31,261 nucleotides of DNA from assembly GCA_943349385.1 (NCBI GenBank), contig CALQZM010000001.1:1-31261 (forward strand), in the 5' to 3' direction. The notes under the pieces were generated by a model. It had not been told where the DNA came from, searched no databases, and was given only the letters and a program-made list of their open reading frames with translations. This DNA is from Candidatus Peribacteria bacterium. Lineage in GTDB: Bacteria; Patescibacteriota; Gracilibacteria; UBA1369; GCA-2718715. The translations under genes and the position numbers were made by a program. Of this stretch, positions 960 through 31,261 are shown piece by piece; the first letter of the stretch is position 1, and each line of letters starts with the position of its first letter.

Positions 960-2828
960 TTATGAGCTTAGTGCTTGTTCCACATTTTCAGCCGTTGTAT
1001 CTTGACATAATTCGACTAAATCTTGATCAAAGTCATCTATGCCTCTATCAATTGATTTTGCGTTATCTATTAATCCAAGATTCCCTAGAGCAGCAGTAGC
1101 TGGTTTAAGACGTATAATAAAATTTGGACTATTGATTGGTGCCAATTCCAAATTCCCATTTTCATCTACACCTTTAAAGATATAAGTATTTTCTGTGCCC
1201 CTTTTACTTTTATAAGAAACATTGAGACCAATCAATTCATTAGGGAACTCCATTAAAGCATCGACTGTTTCATTTCCGGTATCAGTAGATTTGTTAGTAT
1301 TCCTAATATCACGTAAAATTGCACGTACATTAGGCATCTCATATTCTCTAAGGCTAGCATCAATGCCTAAGGATTCACCACTATAAGACTCATAGGTTGA
1401 AGCTAAATCTAAAATTTCATTCCATGCTCGTCTAATATCTGTTTCACAATACCCCATTTGTTGTCTTATTGCCCTACCTAAGCCTTGTTTATTGCCCCTT
1501 TGAACTATATATGGAGCTGATCCAATATTAATTACCGACCCAACAGGTAGGTTGCCTTCAAATAGATCATTTAATAAATTTGCGTAGTACACTGATTGCC
1601 CGTAAGCATTTGCACCACGATCTGCATTCTCAACAATATCACTCAATAAGTCGCTATAGTCTGAATTATTTATTGTACTAGCCCTGGTTTTAGCTTGTTC
1701 GAATGCTAAAAATACTGGACTTCCTGCATCTATTACTTCACGTACCAAGTCAGGTTTATTTTTTTCTTCAATTTGTGGTACTGATTCGTTTTCACTTCCT
1801 TCTTCAATTTGTGGTACTGATTCGTTTTCGCTTCCTTCTTCAACTTGTGGTACTGATTCGTTTTCGCTTTCTTCTTCAACTCCATTAAGACTTGGTGACG
1901 CTTGATTTGTATTAAAATTTAAATGTCCAGCAATTACATATACTGAACGACCTTCATGGGTAACCTCTACTAAAGTTGCGGGTACAAAATTTGCACCCTC
2001 TTTAAATTCTACATATTGAGTTCTTCCTGTAAGGGTCACTACAGTATTTTGTTCAAAAACATCCCCTCTAGTAGCTGCTGCATTGGGGCCAAGCCTTCTT
2101 AAAAGGCCATCTCTTTCAGTTACTACCACTGCATTTTGCCCATTTGAGATAGGTCTTAATGAAGTAAGGTCATTAGAGTCACTCAGTAATGAGTCCTCAG
2201 TACCTGCAAAAGATCTAACAGTAGATAGATCAGCACCTCGTATAATAACAGCGGTCTGCTGTTCTATTGAATCATCTAGCTGTTTAGTAAATATTGATAC
2301 TTCGGGTGCTGCCGTCTGTTCATCGATAGAGTAATTTAAAGGATCGCCTAGCAGACACATAACGCTATTACTAGAATTTTGTGATACTTGTTCAATACTT
2401 TCAAGACCTGAATTATCGTCAGCTCTTTCTTGTTCAATACATGCAAGAACTGAATTATCGTCAGCTCTTTCTTGTTCAATACTTGCAAGAACAGAATTAT
2501 CGTCAGCTCTTTCTTGTTCAATACTTGCAAGAACAGAATTATCGTTAGCTCTTACTTGTTCAGTACTTGCAAGAACAGAACTATTGGTATCTCTTTCTTG
2601 TTTAACTTCTAAAGAACTACGATAACTAATTGCTCCCGATGCAGCTAAGAAAACTGCTGCGGCTCTAAAAAATTTGTTCTTATATATTTTATTTAAAATA
2701 CTTGGTTGTTTTTCCGCATTGCTTGGAGTAGTTACTCTGGAAAAATCGCCTTGATTAAAATTGTCTTGATCAAAATTGCCTTTTTCACCTTGTTCAAACC
2801 ACTTATCTTCATTTATATGATTATTCAT
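960..2828 (-). CDS. Hypothetical membrane-anchored protein (622 aa) with two tandem-repeat blocks and a possible SH3b-like domain
   Basis: Hydrophobic segment FFRAAAVFLAASGAISY near the N-terminus; 14-aa and 12-aa repeats; SH3b-like pattern LRRLGP...VVTLTG...LVEVTHEGRSVYVIAGHL. Confidence 0.7.
   Translation of the reverse strand: MNNHINEDKWFEQGEKGNFDQDNFNQGDFSRVTTPSNAEKQPSILNKIYKNKFFRAAAVFLAASGAISYRSSLEVKQERDTNSSVLASTEQVRANDNSVLASIEQERADDNSVLASIEQERADDNSVLACIEQERADDNSGLESIEQVSQNSSNSVMCLLGDPLNYSIDEQTAAPEVSIFTKQLDDSIEQQTAVIIRGADLSTVRSFAGTEDSLLSDSNDLTSLRPISNGQNAVVVTERDGLLRRLGPNAAATRGDVFEQNTVVTLTGRTQYVEFKEGANFVPATLVEVTHEGRSVYVIAGHLNFNTNQASPSLNGVEEESENESVPQVEEGSENESVPQIEEGSENESVPQIEEKNKPDLVREVIDAGSPVFLAFEQAKTRASTINNSDYSDLLSDIVENADRGANAYGQSVYYANLLNDLFEGNLPVGSVINIGSAPYIVQRGNKQGLGRAIRQQMGYCETDIRRAWNEILDLASTYESYSGESLGIDASLREYEMPNVRAILRDIRNTNKSTDTGNETVDALMEFPNELIGLNVSYKSKRGTENTYIFKGVDENGNLELAPINSPNFIIRLKPATAALGNLGLIDNAKSIDRGIDDFDQDLVELCQDTTAENVEQALSS
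1764..1880. repeat. Intragenic 36-bp tandem repeat, ~3.25 copies (EEGSENESVPQI/V)
   Basis: Units ttcttcaatttgtggtactgattcgttttcacttcc start at 1764, 1800 and 1836, with a partial unit at 1872. Confidence 0.95.
2387..2602. repeat. Intragenic 42-bp tandem repeat, ~5 copies (ADDNSVLASIEQER)
   Basis: Units cttgttcaatacttgcaagaacagaattatcgtcagctcttt start at 2387, 2429, 2471, 2513 and 2555, with degenerate end copies. Confidence 0.95.
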
Positions 2829-2854
2829 TTATTATCTGTGTTAATATCGCGAGC

Positions 2855-2882
2855 ATTATAACGCATAACCTCTACTTGTCAA
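2855..2882 (-). promoter_or_regulatory. Consensus sigma70 promoter for the 622-aa gene
   Basis: Minus strand reads TTGACA-16 nt-TATAAT, ending 26 nt upstream of the ATG at 2828. Confidence 0.75.
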
Positions 2883-2907
2883 TAGACTTTAAAACTAACA
2901 GCTATGG

Positions 2908-4155
2908 CTATTCATTAGATAACCTTTCTTCGATTCTAATAAGTTGGTTGTATTTGGCTACACGATCTGTTCTTGATAAAGATCCGGTTTTGATTTGGCC
3001 AGTTTCCATTCCTACTGCTAAGTCGGCAATAAAGGCGTCTTCGGTTTCGCCGCTTCGGTGGGAAACTACGTTGTGCCATCCAGCTTTTTTAGCCATTTTA
3101 ATTGCGTTGATCGTTTCTGAAACTGTTCCAATTTGATTAAGTTTTACAAGGACTGCATTGCAACCTTTACAATCGATAGCTTGTTGAATTCTTTTGGTAT
3201 TAGTAACCAAAAAGTCGTCACCAACTAATTGAACAGTATCTCCAAGAGCAGCTGTTAAAGCAATCCAGCCTTCCCAATCGTCTTCTGATAATCCGTCTTC
3301 AATTGAAACAATAGGATATTTGGTAATTAAATCTTTATAATAGTTAATCATTTCACTACTAGTGGCTGCAACTTGCTGGCCATTCATTTTCATATGGTAT
3401 TTTCCATCTTTATAGAACTCAGTAGAAGCAACATCTAAGGCTATTTGAATTTGACTACCCAAAACGTATCCTGCTTTTTCTGTAGCTAAAACTAAGAAGT
3501 CTAAGGCTTGTTCATTTGAATCTAATTTCGGAGCAAATCCACCTTCGTCACCTACTGAAGTAGTTAAACCTTTTTCAGTTAGTAAATCTTTAAGTGCGTA
3601 AAAAATTTCGACACCAGCACGAAGTCGATCAGAAAAAGTTTCGATTCCGTTTGGCATTATCATAAATTCTTGAATGTCTAAGCCAGAATCTGCGTGTTTA
3701 CCACCGTTAATTACGTTCATCATTGGAACTGGCATAATTTTAGCATTTGGATTCAAATATTCGTATAACCAGACCCCTTTTGATTTAGCAGAAAGCCTAG
3801 CGTAAGCCATTGAACAACCTAAGATTGCGTTCGCTCCGAGTCGAGATTTATTTTCAGTACCATCTAAATCTAATAATATTTTATCGAAGGCTTCTTGACG
3901 ATCTGTTTCGTAACCCATTATTTTTTCTGCAATTTCACCATTTACATTGGCGCAAGCGTTTAAAACACCTTTGCCTCTAAATCGTTTCATATCACCATCT
4001 CGCAATTCAATCGCTTCATGCTCGCCTGTCGAGGCACCACTCGGAACAATTGCAAAAACACGCAGACCAGTTTCTGAATGCATCTCAACTTCTACAGTTG
4101 GATTTCCTCTTGAATCAATAACTTCTCTTGCTTTTAGGAATTGAATTCTTGCCAT
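2908..4155 (-). CDS. eno: Enolase
   Basis: [48 protein letters not shown] motifs. Start placed at ATG 4155 (MARIQ). Confidence 0.98.
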
Positions 4156-24415: not shown

Positions 24416-24601
24416 ATGATCTTTAACTGTGAAAGTTGCGGCAAATCGATATCTAATAAAAAAGATTTTTGCCCTTATTGCAAATGCGAAACAGCAGAAT
24501 TTAGTTTAGCCCTTGAAAAAAGAAAACTTTTTGGAGCTTCGGCATTATCGCCAAGTTGGAAAGAAAAAATCCGTGGAACTTTAGCAAGTATCCGTTATTA
24601 A
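24416..24601 (+). CDS. Small zinc-ribbon protein (61 aa)
   Basis: CESC-x10-CPYC near the N-terminus; starts 16 nt after the HTH gene stop. Confidence 0.65.
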   Translation: MIFNCESCGKSISNKKDFCPYCKCETAEFSLALEKRKLFGASALSPSWKEKIRGTLASIRY

Positions 24602-24620: not shown

Positions 24621-24665
24621 TTACCCCATTTAGTATTACCGCATTTAGCTTTACTGCATTTAGCT
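24621..24665. repeat. Three tandem 15-bp direct repeats
   Basis: ttaccccatttagta / ttaccgcatttagct / ttactgcatttagct. Confidence 0.85.
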
Positions 24666-25847
24666 TTGACACTGTAATTTAGGTACCTCTTCGGTTAAGG
24701 TATGAAGTCCAACTCCGTCTACCACAAAGGTTTGGTTTATGGCTTCTAAATTTGCATTAAGATCAATTAAATTATCTAAAATTAATACATTACTTGAATC
24801 GTTAAAAACACTTTCAAGCATTGTTTGTGTACTTGAAGAACTAGTTACTTGGTTCCTACTGGCAAGATTTATTGTGTTTAAAGTTGACTGCGATATATTA
24901 ATTAATCCACCGCTGGTACCGTTTACTCCGTTTAAATCTTCGAACCGGGCTTGATTAATTTCTTGATAAGCCTCTATGAATTCTTGCCTATCTGTTTCGA
25001 GTCTTTGAAACTCTGTATTAATTTTGCCGATTGCTGAATTAAAATTTGCTCTAGTTGCATTATAAGATTCTAAAAATGAAGATCCTATTGTATCAATTGA
25101 ATTATTCAAAAAAGCACCTGGCGTTGCCGCAATTGTTTCACCTAGGCCTTCAAAGGCAGCAGAAAAATTACTAGCACTTTGCGAAACCTGTTCTGCAGTC
25201 GCTATAATACTGTCAACTCGATCTACTACGACTTTCCACGAATTAGGACAGTCTAAATAAGTAGGAAATTTTTCTTGGTAATTTTGCAACCAGACTTCAA
25301 AGAATAGGGGTATACTAGGTTTAAATGACTTAGGTACTTTTTTTTCTACTATTTTCTTTAAATTTGCTACTGAGTCTGGTGAAGTGTCGTACTCAGTTTT
25401 ATCTTCGTTTAAAAGTTTTTTTAAGTTTCTTACAAAAATTAATTCTGCGTTTATCTCTGAATAAAGTTGTTTTTGTAGGTCTAATTCTTCATCTGTTAGC
25501 GTTCTAAAATTGTCTAAAATATAATCAGACACCTCATCCTTAGCCCTATGCAAAGCTAATAATTCAACTCTAACACATTGGTTCCCTGCGAACATATCGT
25601 CCTTTAAAAAATTAAATGAATTATCTACGTCAAACATTGTTACAAAAAAGGCACCTAAGTTTTTTAGTTTTCTGTTTATGTTTTCTGGTTGGGCCTCAAG
25701 GTTATCTGCTACAGAGTCAGCAATGCCCTGTGCTGAGTCTACAACACCTTCTACTGGGTTAGCTGCGAACACAACTATTGCGTCGTTTACAATGAGTGTA
25801 AATCCGAGTAGTAATGTTAACGATAACTTTATAATTTTAGAGTGCAC
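24660..25847 (-). CDS. Hypothetical secreted helical protein (395 aa), ends LQCQS
   Basis: GTG start, signal-peptide-like N-terminus (..IVVFA|AN), 11-bp overlap with the upstream gene. Confidence 0.8.
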   Translation of the reverse strand: MHSKIIKLSLTLLLGFTLIVNDAIVVFAANPVEGVVDSAQGIADSVADNLEAQPENINRKLKNLGAFFVTMFDVDNSFNFLKDDMFAGNQCVRVELLALHRAKDEVSDYILDNFRTLTDEELDLQKQLYSEINAELIFVRNLKKLLNEDKTEYDTSPDSVANLKKIVEKKVPKSFKPSIPLFFEVWLQNYQEKFPTYLDCPNSWKVVVDRVDSIIATAEQVSQSASNFSAAFEGLGETIAATPGAFLNNSIDTIGSSFLESYNATRANFNSAIGKINTEFQRLETDRQEFIEAYQEINQARFEDLNGVNGTSGGLINISQSTLNTINLASRNQVTSSSSTQTMLESVFNDSSNVLILDNLIDLNANLEAINQTFVVDGVGLHTLTEEVPKLQCQS

Positions 25848-27417
25848 TGCATTGGGGTTTAGACTTTAATTCTGTAAGGTTTGATTGAATTTCGGCTAAA
25901 TAAGTTTTGTAGTTACTAAAGTATTGGTTCATAGTAGTTAATCGATCTATAATTTCGGATACAAATTCTGAAGTAGAATTAATTGCGGCCGAAGAGGCTG
26001 ATTCTATATTTAGAATATCGATTTCGGATTGCAGGATTTCATTCGGACTGCCTTGAATTTGAGTTGTGCCAATTAGACCTTGTCCAGTTGAATCCGCCGC
26101 AGTAAATGAATCAGTTGAATCAAGCTGAAGCGTTCTAGCTTGAATTTGCCGCGCTATTTCTACTGTTGAAATATCTGTTATGGAATCAACAACTTCTAAG
26201 TCAGGACGAGCTGGTTTTGGAACAAAATTAATCTGCAAGCTAAATGAATTAAAAAGCGATTTTTTGCATAAATTTGGCTCACCGAAATTTCCACTAACTT
26301 TTTTGGGTATCAAACTACCGGCCACTAATTCTTTGGTAATATTTGCTAAATTTTGGATCCTACAAGCAACACAGTTTAAATCTCTAGCAAAATAACTCCT
26401 AGCAGTTGCATACACTTTTTCGACTTTTATACAGAATTTAACACCTGTAAAGTCTTCGGGGATGTCACATTTATTGACATTATTTACTAGAGGATTTGAG
26501 TTAGGGATTCCACCTTGAGTAATTTTATTAATTAATTTTTGTTCAGCATCTTTTTTTTGTTGCTCTTCAGGAGTTGTAGGTTCTGAAAGTCTAGCTTCTT
26601 GCTCTTCAGTAAAACTTTTTAAATCTTCAGTAAGACTAGAATCAATAGGGCAGCTTATTTGATTTGGTTTTGGCATTGTAGAGTCTGAGTCAGCAGTTGC
26701 ATCTGGTTCAGGGGGGGGAGCATCATCATCATCATCATCATCATCGTTACCAGTATTATTCGAATTATTGCTAAGAGAGAATGAAGACCCCGCTAAAACT
26801 TCGGCCCCAGAAGTCTCCAAATTTAAAGAGCCGCTAAATTGCGATTCTACATTTCGTCCTAATAAGATTATTTCGATTTCGTCTAAATCCTCTACTAAAT
26901 CAAAACCAGAATCTCTACTTTTACCATTTGCAAAAAGTTCAAAGGCAAGTGTTTGTCCTTCTAAAGCGGCTAAAGTAGCAAATAATCCTTTTTCTTGTTG
27001 GTAGGTTCGGATTATTTCGTTGGCTCTAATGGATACACTTTCTGGTGTTGAATCCTTTTTTTGAGATAAAAATTTAGTATCGTAATTATCTACTAAATCA
27101 CGGATATTAGAATCACTGTAACCTGTCATACCTGCAAGTAAGGCAATTCCATTAGTCCTAGATTTTTCGGCAAATTCATTAAAAAGAATTAAATATAGAT
27201 TAGTATCATTATCTTTCTTAAATTTTAGATCTTGAAAACCTAGGGTTCTAAAATTTAAGTCGGCAATTCGTGAGATTGTTTGACTTAGATTGTTTTGATA
27301 TTCATTACGCGTTAGGGCCGAAGCTGCAGGTATATTAGTAATTACAGTTGTAGCAACATAGGAACCGAATCCAAAAACCAAACATAATCCGATACATTTT
27401 AATATTTTTAAATACAT
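25837..27417 (-). CDS. Hypothetical secreted protein (526 aa) with poly-Asp linker and Cys-rich domain, ends PQCSAL
   Basis: Signal-peptide-like N-terminus (..PAASA|LT), D8 tract, seven Cys after the signal region, 10-bp overlap with the upstream gene. Confidence 0.8.
   Translation of the reverse strand: MYLKILKCIGLCLVFGFGSYVATTVITNIPAASALTRNEYQNNLSQTISRIADLNFRTLGFQDLKFKKDNDTNLYLILFNEFAEKSRTNGIALLAGMTGYSDSNIRDLVDNYDTKFLSQKKDSTPESVSIRANEIIRTYQQEKGLFATLAALEGQTLAFELFANGKSRDSGFDLVEDLDEIEIILLGRNVESQFSGSLNLETSGAEVLAGSSFSLSNNSNNTGNDDDDDDDDAPPPEPDATADSDSTMPKPNQISCPIDSSLTEDLKSFTEEQEARLSEPTTPEEQQKKDAEQKLINKITQGGIPNSNPLVNNVNKCDIPEDFTGVKFCIKVEKVYATARSYFARDLNCVACRIQNLANITKELVAGSLIPKKVSGNFGEPNLCKKSLFNSFSLQINFVPKPARPDLEVVDSITDISTVEIARQIQARTLQLDSTDSFTAADSTGQGLIGTTQIQGSPNEILQSEIDILNIESASSAAINSTSEFVSEIIDRLTTMNQYFSNYKTYLAEIQSNLTELKSKPQCSAL
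26711..26745. repeat. G8 homopolymer next to an (ATC)8 microsatellite
   Basis: G at 26711-26718 and ATC x8 at 26722-26745; coding strand reads (GAT)8 GCT CCC CCC CCT. Confidence 0.95.
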
Positions 27418-28052
27418 TGGGGAGTGCTTACATTATGAAATACACCTGGATATGGTTTGAAATTTTGCTCCATTTGTTTTAGATTATCTACAAACTCTTT
27501 TAAACTTTCTTTGGTTTGTTGATTTTGAATATGGACTGGATAAGCAAAAAGTAATTGTCGATAAAACTCTAAAGCCTGCAAGTTGATACTACGCATATAA
27601 TTTAATTGCTCATCAATAAATTCTCGTCTTACATCATTTAAAGAAGTAAAACTACTAAAGCTATTAGATTTTGTATTGTTCTCGGCATATGAATTTTGAA
27701 TCTGAATTAACCTAGGTTCCGTAGCTGCGTACAAATTTTCGAGTTCAATTTGCAAACAAACAGAAGAAATACTTTGTCTACAAGCTGAAAAATCACGACT
27801 TGCTAAGTTTTCTGGAGGCAACAATTGAGTTTTAATTTCTTGTAAATAGTTAGGATCATCTAAATCTAATTCATTAAAAAAATTAAGTACTTTATTAAAA
27901 TATCCGTTAGTAATATTATTGGCATTGGCGTAATAGTTTGCGACTAAATTAACTTCACCCCCAGATGAATTGGTATGATTACTACCTAAGGCAATACCTG
28001 CACCAAAAATCATGCTTGCAATAACCGATGCTGATAATATTAATTTATACAT
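27408..28052 (-). CDS. Hypothetical secreted helical protein (~214 aa), ends TPQCI
   Basis: Start placed at ATG 28052 (MYKLILSASVIASMIFGAGIALG, signal-like); the ORF track uses 28067. Confidence 0.78.
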   Translation of the reverse strand: MYKLILSASVIASMIFGAGIALGSNHTNSSGGEVNLVANYYANANNITNGYFNKVLNFFNELDLDDPNYLQEIKTQLLPPENLASRDFSACRQSISSVCLQIELENLYAATEPRLIQIQNSYAENNTKSNSFSSFTSLNDVRREFIDEQLNYMRSINLQALEFYRQLLFAYPVHIQNQQTKESLKEFVDNLKQMEQNFKPYPGVFHNVSTPQCI

Positions 28053-28612
28053 TGAGTAGCGAAACATGTTAATAAGTCATTAAATTTGGCAACATTGTCT
28101 TTAGTGGATCGTAAGTCTTCGTCAATTTTCTCTAGTTCGGCATTTACTGCATCGTATTTTTCATTTAGGATTACTCCCCTTTTTTGCGCTAAATAAGTTT
28201 TATAGGCTTCAACAAAAACTACTCTAAGTGATCCAAGTCTTTCTTGAACATATAGTCGGCACGCTGCGTTTTCCTCGGCGGTTTGAATCCTATTTCTAAC
28301 TGCTTGATTTAAGATCAAATCAATATCTTCAAAAGCTCTGCGATACTGCTTAAATAAGTAATTTAGGCTTTCGGAATTCAAGTTTGCCGATTGTAAAGTA
28401 GTGTCTATTGAAATGTAAAAATTTGTTTGTTTTTGGTTGACCGCAGTTACGACTTCATCGTAGCAAGTAGCTGTTTCTACTGACTGGGTTGGTGTAGTGA
28501 CTAGATCGCCTGATGCAGGAGTTTCGCCAACTAAACTCTGGGCGAAAACAGCCGTTGATATTCCGAAAATCAAAAGGGTAATAGCTGATATTTGAAAAAA
28601 GTTTTTAGGCAT
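28040..28612 (-). CDS. Hypothetical secreted helical protein (190 aa), ends ATQCIN
   Basis: Signal peptide MPKNFFQISAITLLIFGISTAVFA|Q; heptad-patterned C-terminal segment. Confidence 0.8.
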   Translation of the reverse strand: MPKNFFQISAITLLIFGISTAVFAQSLVGETPASGDLVTTPTQSVETATCYDEVVTAVNQKQTNFYISIDTTLQSANLNSESLNYLFKQYRRAFEDIDLILNQAVRNRIQTAEENAACRLYVQERLGSLRVVFVEAYKTYLAQKRGVILNEKYDAVNAELEKIDEDLRSTKDNVAKFNDLLTCFATQCIN

Positions 28613-28619
28613 ATTGAGT

Positions 28620-31261
28620 TTAAATATTTATAAGAATGCTTTTGGCGATAATTTTCTTGGTAATTGGATCTCGTAAAACAGCATAGATTATATCACCTTT
28701 TCGATAAGTTGCAGTAAACTCGAATCTAAAATTACATGGACAGGTTAAGCATGCAGACTGCTCAATATATAATCCCGCTAAATTAGGGACCTTTTTTCGA
28801 GCATCTGGATCAAATTGAGTCACCGTCCCATTTGCACTATTTCCGGTTGTGAGACCATTTAATATATCTCCATTAGGATCTTTACAATTTTTAATATTTA
28901 AAACTCTATAAGCTATGATTGCGAACTCCTCACGGTCTATTTGTTTAGTTGGATTACTTGCTTCAGCTTTAGTTAAAATATAGTTTTGTTTTGGAGCAAT
29001 TCCAGAATTAATATACGGAGTTAAATTTTGAGCGGTCTCAATATATGGAGCGTACCATACTTGATTTTTTTCGATCTTAATATCTTTGAGTGAAATAACT
29101 TTTGTTAACTGCAAGGCTTCTAAGATTACTTTTGTTGCTTCAGCTAAAGTGATTGACTTAGTAGGTTTAAAGGGTGGCAACTTAGATACTTTGTCTAACT
29201 CACCTTGGTATCCAGTAAATAATTTTTGTAGTTTAGTTTCTTTAGTAATTGCATAGTACCAGTCTAGATTTTGACTAAATAAAATATCGCTAAATACGTT
29301 CGGCCTTAAATAACTTTCAGGACGAGGTTCTATACATAAAATCTCAAGCATAATTTTGGCATATTCAGCTCGATTAATTAATCTGGATGGTTCAAAGTAA
29401 CGTTGTCCATCTCTTAATATTCCCTCGACTACACCCAATTTTTGTAGATAATTAATCTCATCAAAACTTGAGTCCGAAACACTAAGGTCTCTAAATCCAC
29501 TTGTTATTGTAGTTGCGGGAACGGTTCTAGTTGTAACAGTTGGGGCTTGCCACTGAACTTCATTAGCTCCAAATGGAATTATAAAACTGATTGCTTTTTT
29601 ACTATTAGAATAAAGCTCAAACCACTGATACTGACGTAAATCAGTTAAGGGTTGTAATTTTATTTGGAGACTTGGATCAGTAATTTTGATTCCACCATTG
29701 GTATCAATAATGGCTAGTTCATTTGAGTTTTGTAGGATTTTTAGTCCACCTGGATAAGCTAGATCGCCGCCTGGAATTTGAGTTAAAGTAATATTATCGG
29801 TTGGAATTTCATCGAATACTAGGACTTGGTTTAAATCTTTGATGGCAGCATTCGCTGGTTTTGCTGTAGCTATTTTAACATCTTGATTAGCGTCAGCTTG
29901 CTTGGTAATAACTGTAATTTGTTCATTACCTTTTAATAGTTTTAGTTGAGTAGGCTGGCCTGGTGCATTGGTAGTTAAAATTTCAATAGCAGCTTGGGTC
30001 GATAAAGTTTTAATACTTCCAGTTTCATAATTCATTTCAGCTAGCGGATTATTGTCTTTATCTTTAACTACTAAGTTTGGCGAATTATTATATTCTGAGT
30101 ACTCAAACTCTTGATTTTCCGTATCGAGTTCTGCAATGATTTCTGGTTGTCCATCTCGTTCTCGAATTATTTCTACCGATAAGTCATTTCGAGTTGTACC
30201 TATGTTTCCAAATAAACTGTCCCCATCAAATTCTAAATCTAAAGTTGGTGAAACTATTTTTATTTTCATTTCAAAGGTTGAGGCATTTAAGGCTTCATCA
30301 ATTGCATTTGCAGCGATACGATAATTACCTGGCGTTACGAATCCGAGTAACTGATATTTAAAGGCAACTCCGCCTGTACCTACTAAGTCTCTATCATTTT
30401 TTGAGTTTCCATCAGCGTCTTTATCAAGTGATAAATTTGTATCTAAATAAAAATCTTCGATATTAGTGCCAGAATCCTTAATTTCGGTAAAATCTAGATT
30501 AACTGGATTATATAAGACTTCGGTAATTTCTGAGCTAAAATCTGGTCCAAAATTTGGAGCTTGTTTATCTTTGCAAATATTTGGGGTAATCGGTAATGAA
30601 TTTTGTAATACGCTAATTACACCATCTGTAATAGTGCTGATTGTGGCTCGGTAATTTTGGTTTGGTAGTTCGATTGCCAGGTTTTGACTGAATGAATTTC
30701 TTACAAATAATTTACCGAATCCATCATTGTTCACTCTTTCTGATTGGTTGAATAGATTTACTTCTTCGAATCCTGCTGCAACAGAATCTGTTCCTAATCC
30801 GTTAACTATGTATCGATTAAATTTATTAGTTTGGTTTAAACTCGCATGATAAATATCGATTATTGTTACTTTATTTTTTAATTGTTTTGGTAAAATAAAT
30901 ACTGCTTTCTTGTTATCTGTACTTACAATTAGAGGTGAAGTAGCAACAGTATTTACATCTACAACATTCGCAAAATCCTCAAAATTATAAATTGAAATTC
31001 GGTTAGTTAAAGGATTAATTAAGTCAGCAGTTTCAGTTTGATTTTGCTTGAAATAAACCTCAGTTCCTCGTGAATATATTACGTCTTGATCATCATCATT
31101 ATCGAAATCTAATAGATTGACAGTCGTTGGCAAATAATTTTCGGCAGAGTAATTTACAATTTTTTCAGCTCGCTGGCTTTCAGCAGTAATATAATAAATT
31201 CCTGATTCTGGACTAAAGGTAGCCTGATTTGCAGTTTCTTGTAATTCGATATTTAAATCTA
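28620..31261 (-). CDS. Large S-layer-homology (SLH) domain surface protein, 5' end beyond the window
   Basis: Frame stays open from 31133 to the window edge. DxDxD-type loops (DFDNDDDQD, DKDADGN); SLH-like repeats (FRDL..EINYLQKLGVVEG..FEPSRLINRAEYAKIML; FSDI..WYY..FKPTKSITLAEATKVIL; WYAPYI..NPTKQIDREEFAIIAYRVL); C-terminal CLTCPC. Confidence 0.85.
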   Translation of the reverse strand, partial: DLNIELQETANQATFSPESGIYYITAESQRAEKIVNYSAENYLPTTVNLLDFDNDDDQDVIYSRGTEVYFKQNQTETADLINPLTNRISIYNFEDFANVVDVNTVATSPLIVSTDNKKAVFILPKQLKNKVTIIDIYHASLNQTNKFNRYIVNGLGTDSVAAGFEEVNLFNQSERVNNDGFGKLFVRNSFSQNLAIELPNQNYRATISTITDGVISVLQNSLPITPNICKDKQAPNFGPDFSSEITEVLYNPVNLDFTEIKDSGTNIEDFYLDTNLSLDKDADGNSKNDRDLVGTGGVAFKYQLLGFVTPGNYRIAANAIDEALNASTFEMKIKIVSPTLDLEFDGDSLFGNIGTTRNDLSVEIIRERDGQPEIIAELDTENQEFEYSEYNNSPNLVVKDKDNNPLAEMNYETGSIKTLSTQAAIEILTTNAPGQPTQLKLLKGNEQITVITKQADANQDVKIATAKPANAAIKDLNQVLVFDEIPTDNITLTQIPGGDLAYPGGLKILQNSNELAIIDTNGGIKITDPSLQIKLQPLTDLRQYQWFELYSNSKKAISFIIPFGANEVQWQAPTVTTRTVPATTITSGFRDLSVSDSSFDEINYLQKLGVVEGILRDGQRYFEPSRLINRAEYAKIMLEILCIEPRPESYLRPNVFSDILFSQNLDWYYAITKETKLQKLFTGYQGELDKVSKLPPFKPTKSITLAEATKVILEALQLTKVISLKDIKIEKNQVWYAPYIETAQNLTPYINSGIAPKQNYILTKAEASNPTKQIDREEFAIIAYRVLNIKNCKDPNGDILNGLTTGNSANGTVTQFDPDARKKVPNLAGLYIEQSACLTCPCNFRFEFTATYRKGDIIYAVLRDPITKKIIAKSILINI

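Follow-up and report, generated by a model that had tools for sequence, protein, structure and literature searches.

Paired tail cysteines in a conserved block of four secreted proteins from Candidatus Peribacteria

The 31,261-nt window analysed here, contig CALQZM010000001.1 of a Candidatus Peribacteria bacterium, encodes four consecutive secreted proteins, g1 to g4, directly behind a giant protein with an S-layer homology (SLH) domain. This g1–g4 module is real, strongly conserved and unannotated. Cysteines at the very ends of g1, g3 and g4 are present or absent in fixed pairs, each pair spanning two different proteins. With moderate confidence, g1, g3 and g4 are read as a helical bundle ringed by interchain disulfides, with g2 as a probable fourth subunit and the complex as an accessory of the giant protein and/or the type IV pilus. 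A sequence-only reading of the window had proposed that the subunits form a heteromeric helical assembly held together by C-terminal disulfides between them. The comparison of 100 loci lends support to this idea for g1, g3 and g4, whose tail cysteines are gained and lost in pairs, whereas g2 gives no covariation signal because its cysteine is nearly invariant. The map of interprotein cysteine pairs is new.

Cysteine conservation and covariation

The four genes are open reading frames (ORFs) that lie in tandem on the minus strand, as given by the ORF list of the window: g1 (190 aa, 28040..28612), g2 (219 aa, 27408..28067, alternative start at 28052), g3 (526 aa, 25837..27417) and g4 (395 aa, 24660..25847, GTG start). 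After the signal region they contain 4, 3, 7 and 3 cysteines, respectively, and these previously stated counts were correct when the codons were checked. The last cysteine is located one to three residues from the C-terminus in all four window proteins, which end in ..FATQCIN, ..STPQCI, ..SKPQCSAL and ..PKLQCQS.

The cysteines were surveyed in alignments of 100–101 orthologues per family. Near-invariant internal cysteines are C50 and C118 in g1, C96 and C104 in g2, C91 and C200 in g4, and C256, C317, C329, C349, C352 and C384 in g3. Their number is even in each of the four proteins, and the free cysteines appear to be confined to the tails. Seven tail positions, labelled A to G, were distinguished. 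The g1 tail has A (Cys183 in ‘LPC’, codon at 28064-28066, present in 52/101 orthologues) and B (Cys188, the last cysteine, 28049-28051, 94/101). The g2 tail has C (Cys218, again the last cysteine, 27414-27416, 99/101). Position D is found ten residues before the end of g3 (59/101) and E is its terminal Cys523 (25849-25851, 53/101). In g4, F is located about ten residues before the end (62/100) and G is Cys393 in ‘KLQC’ (24669-24671, 93/100). The shared Gln-Cys ending that had first drawn attention to these proteins is therefore conserved in one of its two residues: the cysteine is kept at the frequencies given for B, C, E and G, while the Gln is local to the source genome, except in g4, where ‘KQC’ is found in at least 90% of the orthologues.

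All seven tail cysteines are present in 37 loci (pattern ABCDEFG). The pattern.BCD.FG is found in 21 loci and ABC.E.G in 15, the source window among them, while another 15 loci show.BC...G. In six loci of a single family, A, B, E and G are lost and the g2 cysteine is kept (..C....), and one locus (L063) has the pattern ..CD.F. with C, D and F. Four apparent exceptions were recognized on inspection as alignment slips of one to two columns. Once these are corrected, all 100 loci that contain all four genes show identical presence and absence of A with E, of B with G and of D with F.

The history of these changes was followed on an IQ-TREE ‘quick’ tree of 1,110 concatenated non-tail columns. The minimum number of changes is three each for A and E, two each for B and G, five each for D and F, and one for C. 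In phylogenetically independent pairs on supported branches, the partner changed in the same direction in 3/3 cases for A–E, 2/2 for B–G and 4/4 for D–F. In the mismatched combinations A–D, A–F, E–F and D–E, the second site almost never differs with the first. The weight of the covariation case is in the ten independent paired events counted overall, with zero exceptions, and in this strict pair specificity. Coupled presence and absence of cysteines in different genes can thus reveal quaternary structure in cases that structure predictors do not solve.

The terminal cysteine could also be a processing, sorting or covalent-attachment signal (lipidation, a thioether or thioester link to the wall, CaaX-like or MYXO-CTERM-like), and Gln-Cys had earlier been offered as a sorting or modification signal. 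The cysteine is always found 0–3 residues from the end, the proteins are extracellular and they are encoded beside a wall-anchored protein; about 100 orthologues of g1–g4 terminate within a few residues of it. However, no transmembrane helix, charged tail or conserved residues follow the cysteine, its spacing from the end is variable, and no sortase-, exosortase- or rhombosortase-type motif was found. The architecture of LPXTG, PEP-CTERM, GlyGly-CTERM, MYXO-CTERM and PGF-CTERM signals (motif, hydrophobic helix and basic tail) is not seen in g1–g4. Likewise, the signal regions have no conserved cysteine that could form a lipobox (L-x-x-C), the first conserved ones being C50, C96, C256 and C91. 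A signal is also not expected to co-vary pairwise between proteins, and whole families that retain the proteins should not be able to do without it; such a role is considered very improbable.

Proposed disulfide-ringed complex

The loci with reduced sets of tail cysteines define the pairing map. Since there are lineages with B and G alone, B is paired with G; L063, with D and F alone, sets the D–F pair; and with these two in place, the A–E pair follows. The tail cysteines are spaced C-x4-C in g1, C-x9-C in g3 and C-x8-9-C in g4. As the D/E spacing equals the F/G spacing, the ends of g3 and g4 would be parallel and in register.

In the proposed mechanism, g1, g3 and g4 would be exported by Sec, after which their C-terminal amphipathic helices would pack together outside the membrane as a bundle, parallel and in register, with interchain disulfides closing its end. 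Each of the three proteins would give up to two tail cysteines, each to a different chain. For the source genome, the predicted bonds are g1 Cys183–g3 Cys523 and g1 Cys188–g4 Cys393. In many relatives, a third bond between the g3 and g4 cysteines ten residues from the end, g3(-10)–g4(-10), would complete a three-chain ring. In the ABC.E.G class, an intrachain A–B bond combined with an interchain E–G bond could be imagined, which is less parsimonious because partners would have to switch between lineages. Most likely, the complex would serve the giant wall-anchored protein, the type IV pilus or both as a structural accessory in cell-to-cell contact. In this model we infer not only disulfide formation and bundle geometry but also the membership of g2, how the complex connects to the giant protein and what it does. 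The g2 protein is probably the fourth subunit, and candidate partners of its cysteine are the odd cysteine of a C-x2-3-CPC module at the end of the giant protein, or a second g2.

Fibrinogen disulfide rings and the C-terminal disulfide of laminin beta/gamma chains are known examples of such an organization: three chains form a parallel helical bundle, with the end closed by interchain disulfides. The likeness to fibrinogen extends to the closely spaced cysteines on each chain (g1 C-x4-C, g3 C-x9-C and g4 C-x8-9-C), and the mutual dependence of end cysteines on different chains, which characterizes this type of closure, was found for all three pairs in the 100 loci. In contrast to fibrinogen and laminin, the proteins described here are bacterial and extracytoplasmic and show no sequence or fold homology to them; their bundle is deduced from sequence. 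Moreover, unlike that of fibrinogen, the ring is often cut to two bonds, as predicted for the source genome, or to one.

Several points weigh against the disulfide-ringed bundle. With only 2–5 independent events per pair, none of the pairs is significant in a sign test, as fewer than six events cannot reach significance. Covariation indicates co-dependence of cysteines and not their chemistry, and a shared metal site would give an identical signal. A four-protein complex prediction, based on 49-row alignments of g1(45-190), g2(35-219), g3(250-526) and g4(45-395), reached 0.24 compared with a mark of 0.32, at a pLDDT (predicted local distance difference test) of ~50, and counts neither way. In G114, the sole genome in which g2 lacks its terminal cysteine, the giant protein retains its CPC, so that the CPC has no support as the partner of this cysteine. 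A function in host contact or as a pilus accessory is suggested by the gene neighbourhood. Finally, no expression data were found, the share of the stretch being 0.00 in the three RNA runs listed.

It could be argued that there is no complex: each protein would use its terminal cysteine by itself, as a free thiol, in an intrachain bond or as a metal ligand, and the joint loss of these cysteines would reflect a lineage-wide redox adaptation. The complex prediction indeed gave no support to an assembly, the two g1 tail cysteines could bond each other, and one family lost four tail cysteines at once. Nevertheless, the losses are pair-specific: A/E are gone while B/G stay, D/F change five times independently of A/E, and in L063 B/G are lost and D/F retained. 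The internal disulfide cysteines and the g2 cysteine are kept in lineages with tail losses, and g2, g3 and g4 each have a single unpaired cysteine in many genomes. This explanation is therefore judged improbable, and the disulfide-ringed bundle is preferred.

Oxidative folding seems feasible in the source genome, which encodes two membrane-anchored DsbA-like proteins with a thioredoxin fold, one of 241 aa with CPFC (contig C19) and one of 420 aa with CKLC (C45). No VKOR was found, although the genome is 83% complete and its absence is thus not established. On C45 (locus L127), the gene of the CKLC protein (778-2040) overlaps the start of that of a 455-aa SLH protein (2027-3394). The two may form a wall-associated oxidoreductase pair that could serve g1–g4. 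At the residue level, the bond prediction implies that g1, g3 and g4, and maybe g2, should co-purify as one disulfide-linked species. Covariation thereby turns a conserved hypothetical operon into a concrete and cheaply testable structural prediction for biochemistry and cryo-electron tomography.

Conservation and spread of the module

The source genome (G000) consists of 762 kb in 75 contigs. With g3 as a probe, a match was found in 37/41 relatives. At the order level, the g3 profile identified the protein in 193/205 genomes, including 148/150 high-quality genomes, and in 113/118 genera. The order giant-g1-g2-g3-g4 is fixed in twenty 14-kb loci, and the same four genes occur in the same order in eighty further loci, about 100 having been fetched in all. 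The conservation of gene order in syntenic orthologues, which had been suggested as a test, is thus confirmed, and a chance origin of the arrangement is excluded because the whole of it is conserved in about 100 loci.

At the class level, g3 is present in 193/301 genomes, including lineages with in-frame TGA copies, and the giant-g1-g2-g3-g4 arrangement was also seen in further orders. In several families of the class (loci L141 and L142 among them), g3 homologues contain 2–22 TGA codons in frame, as would fit the TGA=Gly code (code 25) of Gracilibacteria/Absconditabacteria, so that the module predates or crosses the code change. Beyond the class, the g2 profile gave one marginal match in about 280 genomes. 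The module is therefore near-universal in one order and widespread in the class, and it is built of protein families without annotation. Public relatives of g2 are labelled ‘hypothetical protein [Candidatus Peregrinibacteria bacterium]’ and have no Pfam domain. Near-identical DNA is present in DNA runs of freshwater and lake metagenomes. Type IV pili and large, sometimes cysteine-rich, extracellular proteins have been described in Peribacteria, Vampirococcus and Gracilibacteria (PMC4736985, PMC8080830, PMC11452946); the gene cassette and the cysteine tails are unmentioned in these three papers.

Two apparent fusions of g3 and g4, considered as Rosetta stones, were not used as evidence. The one in G204 is a read-through of an N run. 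In G011 (locus L091, G011:C31), a joint 1069-aa ORF has a plausible in-frame junction, at which the g3 tail passes into a remnant of the g4 signal peptide, but this may be an assembly error because an N run follows ~35 residues further on.

Structure and family assignment

In the last ~70 residues, conserved hydrophobic columns recur with a period of 3.4–3.5 in g1, g2 and g3 and of 3.7 in g4. Together with the terminal helices in the AlphaFold2 models of g2 and g3, this periodicity supports the heptad-like stretches that had been noticed ahead of the last cysteine. The g2 model, built on a 49-row alignment (pLDDT 89; predicted template modelling score, pTM, 0.73), is an up-down-up three-helix bundle (residues 34-66, 102-130 and 137-203). 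A small disulfide loop lies between helices one and two. The third helix extends ~20 residues beyond the bundle and is followed by a 16-residue coil tail (204-219), which bears Cys218.

The g1 and g2 proteins are paralogues, as they align with an hhalign probability of 96.7% (E 3.4e-10) over 148 columns reaching the terminal cysteine, and of 93.8% with the trimmed parts. The body of g2 is the same three-helix bundle as g1. Along g3, a helical N-domain (~75-190) is followed by a linker that is acidic and of low complexity, then by a module with the six invariant cysteines (256, 317, 329, 349, 352 and 384) and by a C-terminal helix. Its AlphaFold2 model is poor overall (pLDDT 60), with confidence for the helical N-domain and the 56-residue C-terminal helix (458-513). 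In the last ~70 residues, the hhalign probability is 58% between g1 and the g3 C-terminus and 31% between the C-termini of g3 and g4. These values are hints, not conclusive, that the tails of g1, g3 and g4 share a common module.

Two cysteine motifs of g3 and g4 deserve mention. In g3, C349-x2-C352 (26362-26373) is part of an N-C-I-x-C-H sequence in about half of the orthologues, formally a CXXCH haem c motif; a disulfide is likelier than haem because the His is not conserved (Arg in the source genome). In g4, about 88% of the orthologues have two extra cysteines, in the columns at window residues 56 and 117. Both are absent from the g4 of the source genome, and they look like a further coupled intrachain pair.

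The four proteins, which the earlier reading could not assign to known pilin, T4SS or toxin families, match no Pfam, NCBIfam or PDB family. No Pfam or NCBIfam model was above threshold for any of g1–g4, with sub-threshold noise only, and profile searches of the PDB returned no match with E below 0.002, those above it being compositional, to helical proteins such as SNAP25 and ApoA-I. A search of the ESM Atlas by features yielded no usable match for g3. Fold searches with the g3 model returned generic coiled coils with Z<7 and one uncharacterised orthologue. With the g2 model, generic three-helix bundles were obtained (Foldseek E>0.1; VIA Z up to 12.3, where the noise level for helical bundles is ~13). 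In the AlphaFold DB clusters, the only Foldseek match of g2 below E 0.1 was a 209-aa DUF5667 protein (E 5.5e-5, TM 0.61/0.64). The DUF5667 proteins of Patescibacteria resemble g2 in having a signal or transmembrane segment followed by an elongated helical bundle, but there is no sequence relationship, and an assignment of g2 to DUF5667 (PF18915) was rejected (hhalign probability 0.7%; 0/98 scanned g1 and g2 members match the model). The only DUF5667 protein found in the source genome, a 697-aa ORF with two DUF5667 repeats (C9:16335-16973), bears no sequence relation to either g1 or g2.

The giant SLH protein and the type IV pilus genes

Upstream of g1, and separated from its start by 7 nt, the window contains the C-terminal ~880 aa (an 879-aa part; 28620..31261, minus strand) of the giant protein, the gene of which runs off the contig. 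In the source genome this gene is split over two contigs, with the N-terminal ~2,860 aa on C30 and the rest on C1, the contig of the window. A tblastn search with the 3,781-aa orthologue of G003 matches C30:1462-9819 and C1:31220-28623. Other orthologues have 5,590 aa (G010), 5,011 aa (G017) and 4,862 aa (G025). The N-terminus is a Sec-type anchor and not a prepilin leader. The SLH domain (PF00395) is found near the C-terminus, with an E-value of 7e-6 in the window, 2e-5 in G003 and 1.4e-13, in two stretches, in G017.

Five cysteines are invariant in the last 420 aa, three in C-x2-3-CPC just before the end and two in the SLH region. As this number is odd, one of them may be unpaired. In the last ~60 aa (28620-28800; orthologues L009–L027), a short beta-like stretch comes after the invariant ‘E/x-C-x2-3-C-P-C’. 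Thrombospondin-type-3-like ‘DTDGGG..DG.EV’ repeats precede this end domain in most relatives, not in the source genome. In comparison, the SLH surface and S-layer proteins Sap/EA1 of Bacillus anthracis and SpaA of Paenibacillus alvei, which bind a pyruvylated wall polymer, share the SLH repeats. The giant protein differs from them in being 4–6 times larger and in having its SLH near the C-terminus, followed by the cysteine-bearing end domain and four partner genes. In the giant protein, no S-layer lattice domain could be recognised.

In G003, G010, G017 and G025, the giant gene comes directly after pilB, pilC and a pilin gene. The upstream genes encode a pilin (N_methyl, T2SSG), PilC (T2SSF), PilB (T2SSE) and a small DivIC-like membrane protein; G003 has in addition a 431-aa protein without a Pfam match. 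In the source genome, two canonical pilin genes precede the N-terminal part of the giant gene on C30, and C61 carries a pilM/N-like pair. In all five further complete genomes (5/5), one of 2–3 pilC copies shares the strand of g3 and lies 16.6–19.7 kb upstream of it. This is the distance expected for pilC-pilin-giant-g1-g2 and thus indicates pilus linkage. In 9/9 genomes checked, the block comes after pilB-pilC-pilin, at the 3′ end of a type IV pilus operon, and the fixed module is pilB-pilC-pilin(s)-giant SLH protein-g1-g2-g3-g4. Going by gene order, the giant SLH protein may tether the complex, as had been proposed.

Located always directly downstream of pilB-pilC-pilin, g1–g4 (with the giant protein) might replace the minor-pilin/PilY1 priming or tip complex, at the tip or the base of the pilus. 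Four small proteins and one very large one recall fimU-pilVWX-pilY1. The minor pilins and PilY1/PilC of type IVa pili (fimU-pilVWXY1E of Pseudomonas; GspH-K in type II secretion) share with the module this composition, the linkage to pilus genes and a presumed heteromeric contact complex. However, g1–g4 have Sec-type leaders. No class III signal peptide (G|F/M-x-x-x-E) is seen at their N-termini, and PF07963 (N_methyl) and T2SSG give no match to them at E<=1, while the neighbouring pilins have both features, the prepilin motif being present in those of G003, G010, G017 and C30. Unlike minor pilins, the four proteins are all-helical, with no pilin fold by any search. The large partner also differs from PilY1, being a wall-binding SLH protein of 3.8–5.6 thousand residues; when the full 3,781-aa orthologue and the 879-aa window part were scanned against Pfam, SLH alone was found and no PilY1/Neisseria_PilC domain. 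Such a replacement is regarded as unlikely. It concerns location and function and is compatible with a disulfide-locked complex.

More speculatively, and still rather doubtful, the giant protein and the disulfide-ringed g1–g4 could constitute a dedicated wall-embedded apparatus of the Peregrinibacteria/Gracilibacteria-type class, coupling the type IV pilus to a multi-kiloresidue surface fibre as a novel pilus accessory or organelle of host contact. It would replace minor pilins/PilY1 or a wall conduit in episymbionts and would be the first bacterial fibrinogen-like disulfide ring.

Gene overlaps and cysteine codons

The consecutive, overlapping arrangement and the signal-peptide-like leaders described earlier are borne out by the ORFs. 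The overlaps amount to 28 nt for g1/g2 (13 nt from the alternative start), 10 nt for g2/g3 and 11 nt for g3/g4. Each N-terminus, as read from the sequence, combines a basic n-region with a 15–25-residue hydrophobic stretch and a site of small residues such as VFA|Q or ASA|L.

Both g1 tail cysteine codons hold a possible ATG of g2 (ACA TGT at 28067 and CAA TGT at 28052). The g1 end CAA TGT ATA AAT TAA includes the ATG TAT AAA of the short g2 start, and the g2 end CAA TGT ATT TAA includes the ATG of g3. The cysteine codons of the g1 and g2 tails thus seem to build in tight translational coupling. The Gln-Cys ending could then be a by-product of gene overlap, with CAA TGT supplying the ATG of the next gene, as it does at the g1/g2 and g2/g3 junctions. 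Yet g4 ends with Gln-Cys and no gene lies behind it, and g4 itself starts with GTG, the ATG at its junction with g3 being out of frame. Relatives keep the cysteine despite many different preceding residues and differing overlaps. Gene overlap may account for the local Gln codon, not for the conserved cysteine; as an origin of the ending it is hardly tenable, being already largely refuted by the conservation pattern.

A simple scan found no terminator-like site 3′ of g4. Converging on the end of g4, a 61-aa ORF on the plus strand (24416-24601) has a zinc-ribbon-like C-x2-C ... C-x2-C pattern.

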